DNA from: Candidatus Heimdallarchaeota archaeon
Lineage (GTDB): Archaea > Asgardarchaeota > Heimdallarchaeia > Heimdallarchaeales > Heimdallarchaeaceae
Assembly (NCBI GenBank): GCA_030668875.1
Contig: DAOVER010000003.1
Location: forward strand, 78,673 to 110,672
DNA: 32,000 nucleotides
Direction of reading: 5' to 3'
Both the position numbers and the translations under genes were made by a program. Below are positions 645-7,636 of the stretch, piece by piece. The notes under the pieces were generated by a model. The model was not told where the DNA came from. It saw only the letters and a program-made list of their open reading frames with translations, and made no database searches. Positions within the stretch are counted from its first letter, which is position 1. Every line of letters starts with the position of its first letter.

Positions 645-1859
645 ATGAAAAGAAGTGTCTTTATTCTACTATTTATCATATTATTTACAAGCTCTATTTT
701 CGGATCAACCAATGCCATAGAAGTTGAAGTAGATGATTATGAATTGACAATATATTCATATGAATCTCTACTTGCAGATCCTGGTTATGATTTTGTGGAA
801 GGTTACTCCAATTACAGTGGTATCCCTAAAGAAAACATTCGTCTCATTCTTGTTGAGGATGCAAATACAATAGTAACACAAGTTGTGCTAGAGAAAAACA
901 ATCCTATTGCAGATGTTTTGATTGGTATTGATAATGTTCTAATCCATACAGCTAAGAAAGAAGATATTTTAGTTCCATATTCTTCCCCAAGTTTAGAAAA
1001 TATTTCGGAGGAACTAATTGATAATCTGGATCCAGATCACTATCTACTTCCATATGATTATGGTATAATTGCTCTCTGGTATGATATTAGTAGAATCAAT
1101 TCATCCACTATACAAGAGATTAACAATCTAACACTTGAAGACATAATCTCTCTTGAATTAGATAAAAAACTTGTAATAGAGGATCCTACACTTAGCTCAC
1201 CTGGTTTAGGATTTTTGTTGTGGACGATTGCTGTCTATGGTGATCCTTCAATAAATTTTGATGGATTATTAGGTCAAGATTGGAGAGATTGGTGGAACAA
1301 AGCTTCAGATAATTTGAGAATCACTTCAAGTTGGGGAGCAGCTTTTGATGTTTATAGCTCAGAAGAAGGAAACCGTCCAATCATGGTTTCTTATGGAACT
1401 AGTCCAGCTTATGATATATGTCATCCTCTCTGGGGAGTTGGTACAGAAGTTGATCCCCCCTCAGCTGTTTTTTTAAGTCATGAAAACGGACTTGATAATG
1501 CTTGGTTACAGATCGAAGGGATTGGTCTTGTAAATGGAGCACCAAATGAAGAAAATGCTAAGGATTTCATAGATTGGTTTCTAAGTGAAGAACCTCAAGA
1601 AGAAATCCCATTGAACAACTGGATGTATCCTGCGAATAATCGAACAGAAATTGATAACTGCTTCCTTGAATCAGCTATAAACCCGGATGATGTTGACATC
1701 CTAAATTATTTAATCCCTCCAAATATGTTAAACGAAAATCTAGATTACTGGAAATCGGAATGGGAATTGGAGATAGTTGAATTCAGTTCTATTGTTGTGG
1801 TAATTTTAGCAGTTTCAGTTGGAGCAATCTCATACAATTTCGCAAGAAAAAGAAAGTAA
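645..1859 (+). CDS. thiB: Thiamine ABC transporter substrate-binding protein
   Basis: N-terminal signal peptide; motifs LTIYSYES, ADVLIGIDN, LPYDYGIIAL, EDPTLSSPGLGFLLWT, SWGAAF, VSYGTSPAY, QIEGIGLV and IPLNNWMYP are typical of ThiB/TbpA; C-terminal TM helix plus basic tail. Confidence 0.9.
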   Translation: MKRSVFILLFIILFTSSIFGSTNAIEVEVDDYELTIYSYESLLADPGYDFVEGYSNYSGIPKENIRLILVEDANTIVTQVVLEKNNPIADVLIGIDNVLIHTAKKEDILVPYSSPSLENISEELIDNLDPDHYLLPYDYGIIALWYDISRINSSTIQEINNLTLEDIISLELDKKLVIEDPTLSSPGLGFLLWTIAVYGDPSINFDGLLGQDWRDWWNKASDNLRITSSWGAAFDVYSSEEGNRPIMVSYGTSPAYDICHPLWGVGTEVDPPSAVFLSHENGLDNAWLQIEGIGLVNGAPNEENAKDFIDWFLSEEPQEEIPLNNWMYPANNRTEIDNCFLESAINPDDVDILNYLIPPNMLNENLDYWKSEWELEIVEFSSIVVVILAVSVGAISYNFARKRK

Positions 1860-1863
1860 TTCG

Positions 1864-3699
1864 ATGTTGAATAGCATGTTTAGCACTACTCTCAAGAGAA
1901 GAGCGAAAGTGGATTCTATCTTAAACAGATCCATAATCATTTTAGTTATACTTGCTTTTGGTTCATTCTTGATATTGTTTTTTTATGCTCCTTTGTCCAA
2001 AATATTTCAGTTTGCTTTTTCTGATGTTAACTATTATAATGCGCCCTTAAACGCACAGTATTTCAGCCAATCCATAATATCTTTGATATTTTTTTCTGAT
2101 GGTAACCAACTTACCTTTAGTTTTATTATAGAAACTATCACTGATCCACTAAATATCTCATTTTTACTTTTCACATCTTCTCAAGCTATATTATCAATGC
2201 TAATCTGTCTGATTCTAGGAATTCCTGCGGGGTATTTCTTCGCAAAATACAAATTTAGAGGAAAAAAACTCTTACTTAATCTAATGACAATTCCTTTTGT
2301 ACTTCCAGCTATTGTGGTGCTACTAGGGTTTATCGTTACATATGGTGAATCAGGATGGGTTAATAGTATATGGACTGGTTTAACTGGTATTGATTCTCCT
2401 ATCATTGAGATTTTTGGTACATTTGAAGGAATACTTATTGCTCATGTTTTTTATAATTTGTCAGTCATTATTCGAATGTCTATTCCTGCGTGGAAAAGTG
2501 TTGACACAGAGCAGATTGACGTGGCTAAATCTTTAGGAGCGAGTAATTGGTTAATTCTGCGTAAGATTATATTTCCTCAAATTGTGAATTACATTGTATC
2601 TGCAGCTCTACTAGTTTTTATCTATACGTTCAATAGTTTTGCAATTGTTCTCTACTTGGGGGAAATTAAGTTTCAAACCTTAGAAGTAAGAATTTATAAG
2701 CTCATGAAGGCGTCACTCGATTTTAATGGAGGAGCAACTTTAGCTTTGATTCAACTAATATTAAATACAATCATAATTATTCTATACCTCTTCTTTGAGA
2801 GTCGTACAAGACAAATGGCAGAAGGAAAAGAAAGCATATTTACTAGTGAAAAAATATCATTTTCTAAAAACAATTGGAAGAAAAACATAATTATGTCTTT
2901 GTTTATATTGTTCATTCTTATATTGATGATTTTCACCTTCAGTCCAATAGTAGCTATAGTGTTAGAATCTTTCCAACCTTATGCTGATGGAATATCTCAT
3001 TTTTGGGGGTATCAACAGCTGTTTTCTAATGAATATATGCCTTTGCTGGGCAATTCTCCCCTTAGATTGTTGCTAAACACATTACTGTTTGCATCTCTAA
3101 CAACAGTACTAACACTAATTCTATCCGTTTTACTCGTTTTTGTTCTACGAAATAGATATCAAAGCTTAAAAAAATACAAAGTTTCTTTTTCAGAAAATTT
3201 TGTTTCCTATATCATAATTTTACCAATGGCAACATCCTCAATAACCCTTGCAATTGGAATGTTTCTGATGTTCAACAACTCAGTAATTTATTTAGAGTAT
3301 GTATGGGTATTCATAGTGTTGACTCATGTTTTAATCTGTATCCCCTTCGCATCAAGATCTATACTCTCAGCATATAATCGGATAGATGTAGAAATGCTAA
3401 ATGTAGCTTCTACATTAGGAGCTTCTCGATTCAGGATTTTTACGAAAATAGAACTTCCGTTCATTTACAGAGGTATTATTGTAGGGGGGATTTTTGCTTT
3501 TGCAATAAGTTTAGGGGAATTTGCTGCAACAAATTTTCTAGTTAGAGGAGAATATGGAACATTGTCGATTGGCATTTCAAAACTAATTGAAACCCAAACT
3601 TTACAACTACCTGCTACAATGGCAAGTATTCTTGTAATTATCACTGTTATTTGTTTCCTAGTTATACAAAAATTCGGAGATATAGAATTAAAGGTGTAA
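1864..3699 (+). CDS. thiP: Thiamine ABC transporter permease (two fused permease repeats)
   Basis: Multi-TM protein with two EAA-like loops (DVAKSLGAS and NVASTLGAS) and the motifs IPFVLPAIVV and SLGEFAAT. The ATG at 1864 is preferred over the TTG at 1819, which overlaps thiB. Confidence 0.88.
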   Translation: MLNSMFSTTLKRRAKVDSILNRSIIILVILAFGSFLILFFYAPLSKIFQFAFSDVNYYNAPLNAQYFSQSIISLIFFSDGNQLTFSFIIETITDPLNISFLLFTSSQAILSMLICLILGIPAGYFFAKYKFRGKKLLLNLMTIPFVLPAIVVLLGFIVTYGESGWVNSIWTGLTGIDSPIIEIFGTFEGILIAHVFYNLSVIIRMSIPAWKSVDTEQIDVAKSLGASNWLILRKIIFPQIVNYIVSAALLVFIYTFNSFAIVLYLGEIKFQTLEVRIYKLMKASLDFNGGATLALIQLILNTIIIILYLFFESRTRQMAEGKESIFTSEKISFSKNNWKKNIIMSLFILFILILMIFTFSPIVAIVLESFQPYADGISHFWGYQQLFSNEYMPLLGNSPLRLLLNTLLFASLTTVLTLILSVLLVFVLRNRYQSLKKYKVSFSENFVSYIIILPMATSSITLAIGMFLMFNNSVIYLEYVWVFIVLTHVLICIPFASRSILSAYNRIDVEMLNVASTLGASRFRIFTKIELPFIYRGIIVGGIFAFAISLGEFAATNFLVRGEYGTLSIGISKLIETQTLQLPATMASILVIITVICFLVIQKFGDIELKV

Positions 3700-3702
3700 A
3701 TT

Positions 3703-4770
3703 ATGGCAAAACTCTCTATGAAAAAAATTTCTATGAAATATGAAAAAAAGCTGATTCTAGAAGATTTAGACTTAGAGGTTAAACATGGTGAATTGTTGGT
3801 TCTACTTGGTGAATCAGGTTGTGGAAAAACAACCTTGTTAAAAATAGTTGCGGGAATAATTCAACCAGACAAAGGAAAAATTTATGTCGATGATATAGAA
3901 ATTTCCAATCTCTCTCCACAAGTAAGACAGATTGGGTATGTTCCACAAGCCCAAGTTCTCTTTCCCCATATGAAAGTAACACAGAACATTGCTTTTGGTC
4001 TGGAAGCTAGGAAATTGACAAAAGAAACAATAGAAGAGAAAATTAATTGGATAGTAGATCTAGTAGAAATTTCTGATTTACTAGACAGATATCCTCGAGA
4101 GTTAAGTGGAGGACAAAAACAGAGAGTAGCCTTAGCACGGGCAATGGCAATTGAACCGCACATTCTTCTTTTGGATGAACCTCTTTCTAGCATTGATGCA
4201 ATAGGGAGGGAAGCTTTAGCTTTGACTATAAGACGTATTCAGAAAGAAACTTCTACTACTACACTCTATGTTACTCATAATGGAGATGAAGCTAGATTGA
4301 TTAGCGATAGAGTAGCGGTGATTTATGATGGTAAGATTCAACAAGTTGGAAAAGTGCTAGATGTTGAACAACATCCAAGAAATTACCTTATTTCCAAAAT
4401 TTTAGGGTCTCCAAATATTTGGCCAATTCTTTATACAAAAAAGAAAGAAAAAACAAAGCTTTTTACTTCTATTTGTGACATTCCTATTCAAGGAGAAATA
4501 AGCTCAAAAATTACAGGAATAAAGATTCCTCCCTCAATTATTTCAATTTCAAAAGATCGAATTGAAGACCCCAATCTTGTGGCTCTAGAGTGTTACGTGA
4601 AAACAGTGATTGAAAAGAGTGAAGATGAATATCGGTTGATATTAGATCTAAAAGATAATCCTTCCGAATATATCAAAGTTGATTGCTCAAAGTCTGATTA
4701 TGAAGAAAATATCAACCAGAATAAAGAAATCACCATTTACTTTAATCCCTCGGAGGTTATCCTACTTTGA
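3703..4770 (+). CDS. thiQ: ABC transporter ATP-binding protein (thiamine/PotA-like)
   Basis: Walker A GESGCGKT, signature LSGGQ, Walker B LLLDE, H-loop YVTHN and a C-terminal TOBE-like region; starts 3 nt after thiP. Confidence 0.85.
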   Translation: MAKLSMKKISMKYEKKLILEDLDLEVKHGELLVLLGESGCGKTTLLKIVAGIIQPDKGKIYVDDIEISNLSPQVRQIGYVPQAQVLFPHMKVTQNIAFGLEARKLTKETIEEKINWIVDLVEISDLLDRYPRELSGGQKQRVALARAMAIEPHILLLDEPLSSIDAIGREALALTIRRIQKETSTTTLYVTHNGDEARLISDRVAVIYDGKIQQVGKVLDVEQHPRNYLISKILGSPNIWPILYTKKKEKTKLFTSICDIPIQGEISSKITGIKIPPSIISISKDRIEDPNLVALECYVKTVIEKSEDEYRLILDLKDNPSEYIKVDCSKSDYEENINQNKEITIYFNPSEVILL

Positions 4771-5579
4771 TAAATGAAGAGCTAGTGAGGGAAATAGATG
4801 ATAATTTAATGGTAGAATTTGAGTTATCTTCGAAATTAATATGGGAGAAAATAAACGAGGGTTATACAAATGAAAATTACACAATAAAGAAATCGAATGG
4901 TTCTCCTCTTGCAGTTTGTAAAATATTCACAGATGATGAGATTTACCTTCGTAAAGAAAGATTTGAACGAGAAGTTTCTGCATTGGAAAAATATTCAGGA
5001 AACATTGCTCCACAAGTCCTCTATCAGAAAAATTCAAAGATATTGATTTACAATTATGTAGAAGGTACTGGACTCCATAAACTTTCCCCCAAACTTATTG
5101 ACATTAGTTATGTTAAAGATACACTGGACACACTACATTCAGCTCCAATCTCAAAAGATAAGACATTGAAATCTGACGTTATATCATTTTATAAAACCAT
5201 AGCACTAAGATATCAAAAATCTAAATTCGCGTATCCACAAAAACTAATAAATTCTCTCCTAACCCTTGCTCATCGACAGGAAGAGCTTCTAGATACTTAT
5301 ACTGAATTCTTAACTTATGTTCATGGAGACTTAGTCCCCCCGAATTTAATATATAGAAATAGCAGCATTACACTTATAGATTGGGAATTTTCTAGACCTG
5401 AATTGGTTTTCTTTGATTATCAGTATCTCAATTATTATGCAAAAGCTCACAATCTGTCAATAGAAATTGAAATTGAAAAAGATTTACAATTATTTTATGA
5501 CGAATTAATCGATATTCTTGAACGTTTATGGAGGTACGGTTATTTGTTAAAAAACAAAAAAATAGATTACAGTATATGA
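4767..5579 (+). CDS. APH/choline-kinase-family phosphotransferase; candidate thiamine kinase
   Basis: AVCKIF (ATP-binding Lys), REVSAL...APQVL, Brenner motif HGDLVPPN and IDWEFS. The TTG start overlaps the thiQ TGA (TTGA), with GGAGGT at 4752-4757. Confidence 0.8.
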   Translation: MINEELVREIDDNLMVEFELSSKLIWEKINEGYTNENYTIKKSNGSPLAVCKIFTDDEIYLRKERFEREVSALEKYSGNIAPQVLYQKNSKILIYNYVEGTGLHKLSPKLIDISYVKDTLDTLHSAPISKDKTLKSDVISFYKTIALRYQKSKFAYPQKLINSLLTLAHRQEELLDTYTEFLTYVHGDLVPPNLIYRNSSITLIDWEFSRPELVFFDYQYLNYYAKAHNLSIEIEIEKDLQLFYDELIDILERLWRYGYLLKNKKIDYSI

Positions 5580-5930
5580 CTTTGTTGTTCTATTTCTGAC
5601 GGATATGAAGTTTAATAGTAAATTTCAACAATAGTTACTTGACATATAGCTTCTTTTAGAGTTGTGTTAAAATTGTTGGGTAAGTGGAATTAACAAGGAT
5701 ATCGATGCTAGTGTGTGTAGATGGGTGTATGAACCTAGTTCTCTAGAATTCTCTGGATTTCGTGGCAATCATATTCACCTTCCACAAGATTCTCGAGTGA
5801 TTAATAGCCCTAAATACTAGAAAAATTTCTGGATATGTTTGTAAAACCAGTATTATGTAATTCTTGAGACAACATTTTTAATGAATGTAACGTATTGTTT
5901 ACAGTTTTATCAAAATAAATAGTGGTTTCA

Positions 5931-6491
5931 ATGGATAACCAAGAAGAAGGAAAAATAGAAATATTCTTGTCGTCTAGTGATTTGCTTCAGATAATTGGAG
6001 ATTGGTTCAAAGCAAAGAGAATTTTCTACTCTGATGAAATGTTTAATGATTATCATAATAATGTAAGTGATAAACTAAATGAAACAAATGAGATGACAGA
6101 GTATCTTAATATTAAACTTCAAGAGAAGGTTTTCCAATGGTTAAGTACTCATCATTCCAATCGAAAAGATGTATATCAATCAGTTGAGGAAAAGGATGAA
6201 GAACTCGTCCCTGCATGGTTTTTGCAAGAGAGATTCAAGGAAATTGAGATGATGATTTCTTCTAAATTTTTCAGCTATGGTTTCAAAGATATTGCTATGG
6301 AATACGATAGTGCTTTGAAGCATTTTATAGTCTCTCTCTTTTCAAATAAAGAAATGGATGAAATGTCATTAAGTGTCCTTTCAAGTGATATTCAAGCCTA
6401 TTTGGTAAATCAACTAACATTACTAAAATTAGAAAAAGCTAAACTGCATGAAAAAAAGCAGATAGAGTTTGTATTTTCTCTTATTTGGTAA
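5931..6491 (+). CDS. Hypothetical acidic, helical soluble protein
   Basis: ORF of 186-189 aa with host-like codon use (GTG 5922 or ATG 5931). No recognisable motif. Confidence 0.6.
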   Translation: MDNQEEGKIEIFLSSSDLLQIIGDWFKAKRIFYSDEMFNDYHNNVSDKLNETNEMTEYLNIKLQEKVFQWLSTHHSNRKDVYQSVEEKDEELVPAWFLQERFKEIEMMISSKFFSYGFKDIAMEYDSALKHFIVSLFSNKEMDEMSLSVLSSDIQAYLVNQLTLLKLEKAKLHEKKQIEFVFSLIW

Positions 6492-6499
6492 AGAAAACA

Positions 6500-7636
6500 T
6501 CATTTGGTGTCATTTTTTATTGTTTTTTGTTCAGTCGTTTTAGCTTTCTCATTTTCCTTTGTGTTGATATAGGACAGCATAGAAACTGTTACAAGTAATA
6601 TGCCCGCACCGATTATCTGCAATGTGGTTAGACCATAACCCAGGAAGAAATAATTTACAAAAATTGCTAGTAGTGGAAAAGCTAATTCTGCGAGTCCAGC
6701 AATTGTAGCTTTTGATCGTTTCAAACCAAAGTAGTAGAGTGCTAAAGGTAGAACTCCTCCTGTTAAGAACGCTGAGTAAGCAATACAGGCAATTACAGGC
6801 CAAAAACCATTGTACACTTGTGGATAAACACTTATTCCATTAGTAAGAAATACATAATGTGAAACATCGAATAATCCTGGAGAAACGTAGATACCAGCAA
6901 ATAGAAACTCAAAATAGGTACTGTTGTATGTCAAAAGGATACCATTAAAGACTAATAAGAAGAAAAATCCACCCACATATCTTAGAAATGTCAAATCCCA
7001 ATAGTTTAATTTTTCTGTTAAACGCCTTCCAAATACTGTTGATCCACCCCACATTGTGGCTGCTAATAATGAACATAATACTGCAATAAAGCCTACCCAA
7101 TTGAAGGGTTGACCAGATTTAATTAATTCTTCAAAGACTATGAGAAATACCCCTATCAGCGAAAGTGAAAGGGCGACATAATACTGCCAAGTTGGCTTTT
7201 CCTTCAAAATAGCTGCAGCAAAAGCTAATGTAATAAGAGGTTGAGTTTTTTGAAGAAGAATAGCCACAGTTGGATTACCCATTCCTAATGAAATTAGGAA
7301 GAAAAACAATCCAAGAGCTGATCCTCCCATAGATACGTATATTAATGCAAACCAATCTTTTTTTTCAAATTCTTTCAAGGTTTGGAAAATCTGTTTGAAA
7401 CCTCTTCGAACTAGAATTATTGGTGCTAGAATAATGATGCCAAAAAAGTGTTCTATTAAACTTATAAATGCTGAAGCTCTTGGCATTGCTAAATAATTTG
7501 TAGTTCCCCATGAAAATCCTGGAGATTGGATAAGTAAAGGGTTTCTTACAGGTGCATCAAAAGCACGAGCAGCATTTGCTAAAGAAACTAGTGCAGGACC
7601 AAATTTATTGTCAACTTGCTTTTTTACATCAGACAT
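6500..7636 (-). CDS. DMT/EamA-family transporter
   Basis: About 10 TM helices in two EamA repeats; motifs LLQKTQPLIT...ILKEK, MWGGSTVFGR and LYYFGLKRSKATIAGLAELAFPL. Confidence 0.88.
   Translation of the reverse strand: MSDVKKQVDNKFGPALVSLANAARAFDAPVRNPLLIQSPGFSWGTTNYLAMPRASAFISLIEHFFGIIILAPIILVRRGFKQIFQTLKEFEKKDWFALIYVSMGGSALGLFFFLISLGMGNPTVAILLQKTQPLITLAFAAAILKEKPTWQYYVALSLSLIGVFLIVFEELIKSGQPFNWVGFIAVLCSLLAATMWGGSTVFGRRLTEKLNYWDLTFLRYVGGFFFLLVFNGILLTYNSTYFEFLFAGIYVSPGLFDVSHYVFLTNGISVYPQVYNGFWPVIACIAYSAFLTGGVLPLALYYFGLKRSKATIAGLAELAFPLLAIFVNYFFLGYGLTTLQIIGAGILLVTVSMLSYINTKENEKAKTTEQKTIKNDTK

Follow-up and report, generated by a model that had tools for sequence, protein, structure and literature searches.

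What does a small-molecule kinase gene do at the end of an operon that appears to import thiamine? The question is raised by a 32,000-nucleotide stretch of DNA from a Candidatus Heimdallarchaeota archaeon (the window, G000:C29:78673-110672, part of a 3.23-Mb genome in 99 contigs that is 92% complete), in which a thiR-like regulator gene, thiB, thiP and an ABC ATPase gene are followed by a gene for a 270-amino-acid kinase of the APH/choline-kinase fold (4767-5579, + strand; Pfam and NCBIfam matches). We know of no enzyme described as allowing archaea that have ThiL and lack thiamine pyrophosphokinase (TPK) to use free thiamine. Our analysis leads us to regard the kinase, with fair confidence, as an analogous, previously undescribed thiamine kinase that would perform the reaction of ThiK by analogy and not by orthology, a view that rests on genomic context. 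We propose that the thiR-like gene, thiB, thiP, the ABC ATPase gene and the kinase gene form an autoregulated vitamin B1 uptake-and-activation unit, in which the kinase would act on thiamine.

The thiamine pathway of the host defines the step that such a kinase would fill. Model searches of the genome found ThiL above its cut-off (202 bits) and no match for TPK, ThiD, ThiE or ThiC, and nothing reached the ThiM or Thi4 cut-offs. The regulator of the operon is the only ThiN-domain gene of the genome, and no catalytic ThiN was found. Seven genes for enzymes that use thiamine pyrophosphate (TPP) indicate that TPP is needed. Since ThiL is the only known thiamine enzyme present, free thiamine that is imported could not be used unless something turned it into thiamine monophosphate (TMP). 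An earlier, sequence-only reading of this DNA had supposed a salvage route from imported thiamine to TMP, and the genome content agrees with it: thiL is present, TPK and the de novo genes were not found, and the thiamine-to-TMP kinase is therefore the missing step. The kinase that is coupled to the importer is the obvious candidate for it.

The same pathway content extends across the class. Among 82 Heimdallarchaeia genomes, ThiL was found in 75 and ThiB scored above its cut-off in 74. ThiD reached its cut-off in none of the 82, with a partial ThiDN gene in genome G068 just under it, and TPK reached its cut-off in none, in a search that recovers the archaeal TPK of Sulfolobus as its control. 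The G068 gene (G068:C324:5-1093) is a ThiD-ThiN (ThiDN-like) fusion frame and the sole case in the class sample; thus, only G068 shows signs of thiamine phosphate synthesis. A hidden TPK was considered and rejected, since the weak PF04263 matches of 20-27 bits in relatives are MptE-like pterin diphosphokinases encoded beside PTPS. One such gene, L018:829-1590 in genome G013, encodes an MptE-like 6-hydroxymethylpterin diphosphokinase of about 253 amino acids beside PTPS, and such counterparts occur in 20 of the 29 Heimdallarchaeaceae genomes. These proteins yield weak TPK_catalytic matches and could be mistaken for thiamine pyrophosphokinase.

The kinase gene is joined to the transporter genes at its very start codon. 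Its TTG (4767-4769) overlaps the TGA stop codon of the ATPase gene (4768-4770) in the sequence TTGA, and a GGAGGT Shine-Dalgarno-like element (4752-4757, + strand) can be read 9 nucleotides 5' of the start. The sequence-only reading had described both features, and both were confirmed. In five relatives (L004, L006, L007, L014 and L016), an xTGA overlap of start and stop falls on the same codon of the alignment, and GGAGGT is kept at the equivalent place in L003, L006, L007 and L017. The recurrence of the overlap and of GGAGGT in relatives indicates that the coupling is conserved and is no chance reading. As a separate observation, the kinase frame of L003 (5330-5520) extends 5' of the annotated ATG as far as the ATPase stop, and no ATG, GTG or TTG stands at the aligned kinase start. 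The public 221-amino-acid gene call is therefore probably too short, unless translation begins at an unusual start codon.

Linkage of the kinase to the transporter is also conserved in gene order. A profile search with the kinase family across 1.84 billion cluster representatives returned 13 clusters at E-values of 1e-50 or below and one fragment at 5e-28; the next matches, generic APH proteins, begin only at 8e-14. All named members come from Heimdallarchaeaceae, and one of the genomes concerned, that of Ca. Heimdallarchaeum aukensis, is closed. In the class sample, the family was found in 24 of 29 Heimdallarchaeaceae genomes as well as in the genome of the window, and in none of the 52 other genomes. 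The five Heimdallarchaeaceae genomes without the kinase are fragmented assemblies; two of them (G008 and G027) also have no thiB match, and in two others (G012 and G019) thiB lies within about 700 bases of the contig start. As delimited by these searches, the kinase represents a small, sharply bounded new APH subfamily confined to Heimdallarchaeaceae. The SBP (substrate-binding protein), double permease and ATPase genes adjoin the kinase gene in all ten loci with enough flanking DNA, and this linkage holds at kinase identities down to 32%. The genes share one strand and are directly preceded by a ThiN gene in the window, L003, L006, L007 and L017; they share one strand and have no adjacent ThiN gene in L004/L005, L014 (H. 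aukensis), L016 and one JGI contig; and kinase and transporter genes are in divergent orientation in L015. Synteny of thiBPQ and the kinase, which the sequence-only reading had proposed to look for in Asgard genomes, is therefore kept in every relative with enough context.

The binding protein encoded with the transporter is of the thiamine type. The SBP encoded by thiB (645-1859, + strand), which carries a signal/anchor sequence, scores 175.8 bits against the thiamine-SBP subfamily model TIGR01254, for which the cut-off is 93.4. Its closest solved relative is the E. coli thiamine-binding protein 2qry (2.8e-25, with the next match at 5e-9), and alignment of the two proteins shows conservation of the motifs YxY(D/E)S, SxPG, W, SYxTSPAY and NWMYP, which probably correspond to ligand contacts in 2qry. 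We assign the SBP, on these similarities, as a TbpA-like/ThiB-type thiamine-binding protein. The thiP-like gene (1819-3699, + strand; true start likely the ATG at 1864) encodes a fused double permease with two BPD_transp_1 stretches in Pfam. ThiP models such as TIGR01253 are its best NCBIfam matches (4e-50, 159-171 bits), all under their cut-offs of 395-679. The ABC transporter ATPase in the thiQ position (3703-4770, + strand; ABC_tran, 1e-36) is a protein of 355 amino acids with a C-terminal extension. ThiQ membership was judged by the TIGR01277 cut-off and an architecture of about 230 amino acids; the ATPase scores 178 bits against a cut-off of 245, and it scores higher with WtpC, PhnT, UgpC and PotA-type models than with ThiQ. 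By these scores the 'thiQ' gene encodes a generic ABC ATPase and no strict ThiQ orthologue. The sequence-only reading had placed the kinase in a thiBPQ operon, of which one part stands, as the kinase gene closes a thiR-thiBPQ-type operon and is translationally coupled within it, and the other does not, as the strict ThiQ assignment falls away. Together these assignments lead us to infer that thiamine is the substrate of the transporter.

The protein sequence of the kinase points to an intact catalytic core. The sequence-only reading had called the gene a complete APH/choline-kinase-fold open reading frame (ORF) with HGDLVPPN and IDWEF motifs, which sequence and Pfam analysis bear out: HGDLVPPN forms residues 186-193 (nucleotides 5322-5345) and IDWEF residues 204-208 (5376-5390), and the protein passes the cut-offs of both PF01633 Choline_kinase (37.8 bits, cut-off 29) and PF01636 APH (36.6 bits, cut-off 23.2). 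In an alignment of 21 family members with pairwise identities down to 30%, K52 (the beta3 Lys), E69 (the alphaC Glu), H186-G-D188, N193 and D205 (the Mg-binding Asp) are invariant, and W26, G32, N35, P82, Y95, E207, R210, D217, Y220 and Y244 are conserved residues specific to the family. An AlphaFold2 model built from the family alignment has a predicted local distance difference test score of 92 and a predicted template-modelling score of 0.90. Its structural neighbors include Plasmodium choline kinase 3c5i (Z 19.2) and LicA (Z 18.5), along with APH(3'), APH(4), APH(2'') and macrolide kinases; the choline kinase, LicA, APH(3') and APH(4) structures match at Z 17-19 over 222-265 residues. From alignment and model, the protein is predicted to be an intact small-molecule kinase of the APH/choline-kinase superfamily with a bilobal eukaryotic-like fold, and it looks active.

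Similar pairings were found outside Heimdallarchaeaceae, among ten thiB loci taken from other families of the class. In family f5, a different APH kinase of 298-320 amino acids stands beside thiBPQ in all five loci with thiR adjacent, placed either upstream on the same strand or convergently downstream; its highest-scoring NCBIfam models are ThiK, at up to 71.7 bits, and GntI. In three of three loci from family f7, a third APH kinase of about 350 amino acids lies directly upstream of a lone thiB. These f7 kinases (L023:8071-9120, L024:7475-8536 and L027:7936-9003) have weak homoserine-kinase-II/SrkA-like matches, and no permease or ATPase gene adjoins the thiB-like SBP gene. In a maximum-likelihood tree the kinases of Heimdallarchaeaceae (f1), f5 and f7 form separate clades with SH-aLRT (Shimodaira-Hasegawa-like approximate likelihood ratio test) support of 98, 96 and 100, joined neither to each other nor to E. 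coli ThiK. A single ancestral thiB-linked kinase was considered and is not supported by this tree, in which the three clades are interleaved with unrelated kinases, although at such divergence a common origin keeps some probability. The recurrence of an APH kinase beside thiB within the class argues for a job on the transported vitamin, whether it arose by recruitment or by extreme divergence.

The operon also appears to be under the control of its own regulator. The window holds the 3' part of the thiR-like gene (3-575, + strand; Pfam ThiN at 1.6e-29 on this fragment), which is cut by the window edge. The full gene (L010:1084-1995) starts 337 nucleotides before the window and encodes 303 amino acids, with ThiN at residues 140-298 (101.5 bits), a Cys-rich linker and an N-terminal helix-turn-helix (HTH) for which several models match weakly at residues 17-57 (E 0.02-0.09). 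The closest solved relative is MJ0236. The predicted domain order, HTH followed by ThiN, is that of ThiR. Genomes without thiR at the thiB locus encode a ThiN protein of about 300 amino acids 7-8 kb away.

A candidate target for this regulator lies in the thiR-thiB gap, where the palindrome TATAGCCCCCCTATA (580-594, no strand assigned) stands 51 nucleotides 5' of the thiB start. The pattern TATAG-N5-CTATA, scanned with at most one mismatch, stands 20-95 nucleotides before thiB in 18 of 20 loci from families f1, f3, f5 and f7, compared with a background of about 1 per 10 kb elsewhere in the roughly 340 kb scanned. Besides the window, the thiB sites include L003:1207, L004:3869, L006:2887, L007:2798, L014:3824, L015:7223, L016:3857, L017:1687, L021:10056, L022:9029, L023:9169, L024:8577, L025:10056, L026:8607, L027:9044/9057 and L028:8691. 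The pattern also occurs 5' of thiR in L003, L006, L007 and L017. Exact TATAGSNNNSCTATA sites number only two in the genome of the window, and a reversed-pattern control gives one. Because it is conserved upstream of thiB, the palindrome at 580-594 is a strong candidate for the ThiR operator; it possibly overlaps the TATA element of the promoter. The other exact copy lies at G000:C40:2271-2285 (L031:2271-2285) within the same 18-mer, ATATAGCCCCCCTATATA. It is surrounded by small ORFs without Pfam matches, with a 453-amino-acid ArsR-HTH gene near; no thiamine link was found among these neighboring ORFs, and the site may be a further ThiR target.

These components suggest a pathway in which ThiB would capture external thiamine and the ABC transporter would import it. 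The coupled APH-fold kinase would then phosphorylate thiamine on its hydroxyethyl group with the gamma-phosphate of ATP to give TMP, and ThiL, encoded elsewhere in the genome, would turn TMP into TPP. Finally, the ThiN-domain regulator would sense thiamine phosphate, bind TATAG-N5-CTATA before thiB (in relatives also before thiR) and shut the operon. Metallosphaera ThiR reportedly needs thiamine phosphate for DNA binding (Rodionov et al. 2017); thus, the kinase product would be the feedback signal. A wider form of this model, which we put forward tentatively and with slightly less than even confidence, is that the Heimdallarchaeia as a class are B1 auxotrophs whose sole route to TPP is ThiB-type import followed by an APH-fold thiamine kinase and ThiL, under a ThiR/TATAG-N5-CTATA switch. 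In this wider model the kinase step would be filled by three unrelated APH lineages recruited beside thiB in three families, and TMP would be the co-repressor.

Several results weigh against a thiamine kinase at this locus. No sequence signal tying the kinase to thiamine was found in NCBIfam, hhalign or tree analysis. Against the ThiK equivalog models, the kinase scores 32.7 bits where TIGR02721 has a cut-off of 299.45, and 21.8 bits where NF007620 has a cut-off of 206. ThiK is the second-best NCBIfam match of the kinase, outscored by GntI (47.5 vs 32.7 bits), and hhalign to E. coli ThiK (from NC_000913) gives a probability of 51%. In the maximum-likelihood tree, E. coli ThiK is a long branch of 2.68 with no supported partner, and the kinase family is not joined to it. 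The 'ThiK-type' label given in the sequence-only reading has to be dropped on the missed ThiK cut-off, the hhalign probability and the lack of a supported grouping in the tree, which together make the kinase an analogue within the APH superfamily and no member of the ThiK family. In favor of a thiamine kinase, the operon kinase is the top match to the ThiK model among the proteins of its own genome. Of the other similarity searches, a PDB profile search returned corramycin phosphotransferase only (E 4.6e-4), ESM Atlas features fell in generic APH clusters only, and the closest sequence outside the family, P0044, sits in a radical-SAM/PqqD cluster, which makes the sequence neighbors uninformative on function. 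The fold likewise gives no substrate, since its neighbors among the choline, aminoglycoside, hygromycin and macrolide kinases all score within about 1 Z unit of one another (Foldseek, VIA-align).

Further points against it come from context. In families f3 and f4, each represented by one locus, thiBPQ and thiR occur with no adjacent APH kinase. The ThiBPQ transporter of E. coli also carries TMP and TPP, so a kinase is not strictly required for imported vitamin to be used. In addition, absences from a genome in 99 contigs are no proof. As an observation on the f3 locus (L025:4962-5957, - strand, genome G032), a 331-amino-acid ORF that has no match in Pfam shows a 4-bp overlap with the thiQ stop; standing in the position of the kinase, it may be a non-APH analogue or have a further transporter-linked function.

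The same evidence allows other explanations of the kinase to be weighed. It is unlikely, in our judgment, that the substrate of the kinase is a different small molecule, imported together with thiamine or similar to it, so that the enzyme detoxifies or traps a thiamine analogue or antivitamin, or phosphorylates a degradation product such as hydroxyethylthiazole, and does not supply TMP to ThiL. Kinases of the APH fold are often detoxifying and many such enzymes are among the structural neighbors, no sequence feature specifies thiamine, and the transporter may deliver TMP or TPP directly. However, the genome lacks ThiD, ThiE, ThiM and a catalytic ThiN with which precursors could be used, and free thiamine would be useless without a thiamine kinase, yet the class as a whole keeps ThiB and ThiL. 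The presence of three separate kinase lineages next to thiB also agrees more with a central step of metabolism than with an accessory function. A generic choline/ethanolamine or housekeeping APH-family kinase, whose position merely reflects lineage-specific gene order, would explain why Choline_kinase is the best Pfam match and why Plasmodium choline kinase and LicA head the structural matches. We consider this quite improbable, since the linkage is kept to 32% kinase identity and through a divergent rearrangement, the 4-nucleotide overlap is conserved, different APH lineages adjoin thiB in other families, and the kinase family is absent wherever this form of the operon is absent.

Some APH-family members (SrkA/YihE) phosphorylate proteins, and the f7 kinases match the SrkA model weakly, which could point to a role in regulating the transporter or ThiR, as a protein kinase or as a pseudo-enzyme. 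Such a role is very hard to reconcile with a 270-amino-acid protein of compact small-molecule-kinase architecture that has the IDWE[FY] motif common to choline kinases and ThiK, and the invariant catalytic residues speak against a pseudo-enzyme. An analogous thiamine kinase remains the reading that we favor.

Comparison with known kinases helps to place this proposal. E. coli ThiK (YcfN) is reportedly an APH-family thiamine kinase (Melnick et al. 2004). The E. coli/Salmonella enzyme (EC 2.7.1.89) resembles the kinase described here in its APH/choline-kinase fold and length (274 vs 270 amino acids), in the HxDxxxxN and IDWE[YF] motifs present in both, and in the reaction feeding ThiL that is predicted for the archaeal protein. 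In contrast, E. coli thiK lies between lpoB and nagZ, away from thiBPQ, whereas the kinase gene here is coupled to the importer, and the present family belongs to archaea, within a single lineage of family rank. The choline kinases LicA (4r7b) and Plasmodium ChoK (3c5i) come closest in structure, at Z 18.5-19.2 with 252-262 residues aligned; the kinase shares with them a pass of the Pfam Choline_kinase gathering score, and their substrate is, as thiamine is, a small cationic alcohol. They differ in showing only 15-20% identity, and the archaeal family has no lic or phospholipid gene context but occurs exclusively in a thiamine-uptake context.

The pairing of an importer gene with an enzyme that phosphorylates the imported vitamin is also seen in PnuT-TPK and similar transporter-kinase pairs. 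Here the importer is a primary ABC transporter and no facilitator, and the enzyme is predicted to be a monophosphate-forming APH kinase and no pyrophosphokinase, TPK not having been found in the 82 class genomes. We know of no described archaeal ThiR regulon that includes a kinase. Since the host lacks biosynthetic genes to regulate, the regulon here appears to consist of uptake and kinase only. Archaeal ThiR regulons, as reported by Rodionov et al. 2017 and Hwang et al. 2017, have in common with this locus an HTH and ThiN regulator beside thiamine transport genes and a palindromic site in promoter regions, and they differ in that the regulator here, of about 300 amino acids, has an extra Cys-rich linker.

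Several neighboring genes recur downstream of the operon. A 342-nucleotide gap after the kinase gene is followed by a 189-amino-acid ORF without Pfam match (5922-6491, + strand), which has a counterpart with 45% identity at the equivalent place in L017; ORFs of similar length (187-198 amino acids, judged by length alone) follow the kinase in L007 and the JGI contig. A gene for an EamA-family transporter (6500-7636, - strand) lies on the opposite strand and is a recurrent neighbor.

The sequence-only reading knew of no described archaeal module of uptake plus kinase, and a literature search on Asgard or archaeal thiamine kinases and on this operon indeed turned up no paper describing one. The operon supplies a concrete, testable candidate for the missing step of archaeal B1 salvage. 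If the wider model is true, the three kinase lineages would be the first archaeal thiamine kinases, arising by repeated non-orthologous recruitment, and TMP as the kinase product would close a feedback loop as co-repressor. The candidate operator and the ThiR-like regulator would form a small, testable archaeal regulon, and the three kinase lineages beside thiB would illustrate the recruitment of the APH fold to new substrates. For the Heimdallarchaeia, the sampled closest archaeal relatives of eukaryotes, the proposal would mean dependence on external vitamin B1, which bears on their syntrophic lifestyle and on the media used for their cultivation.

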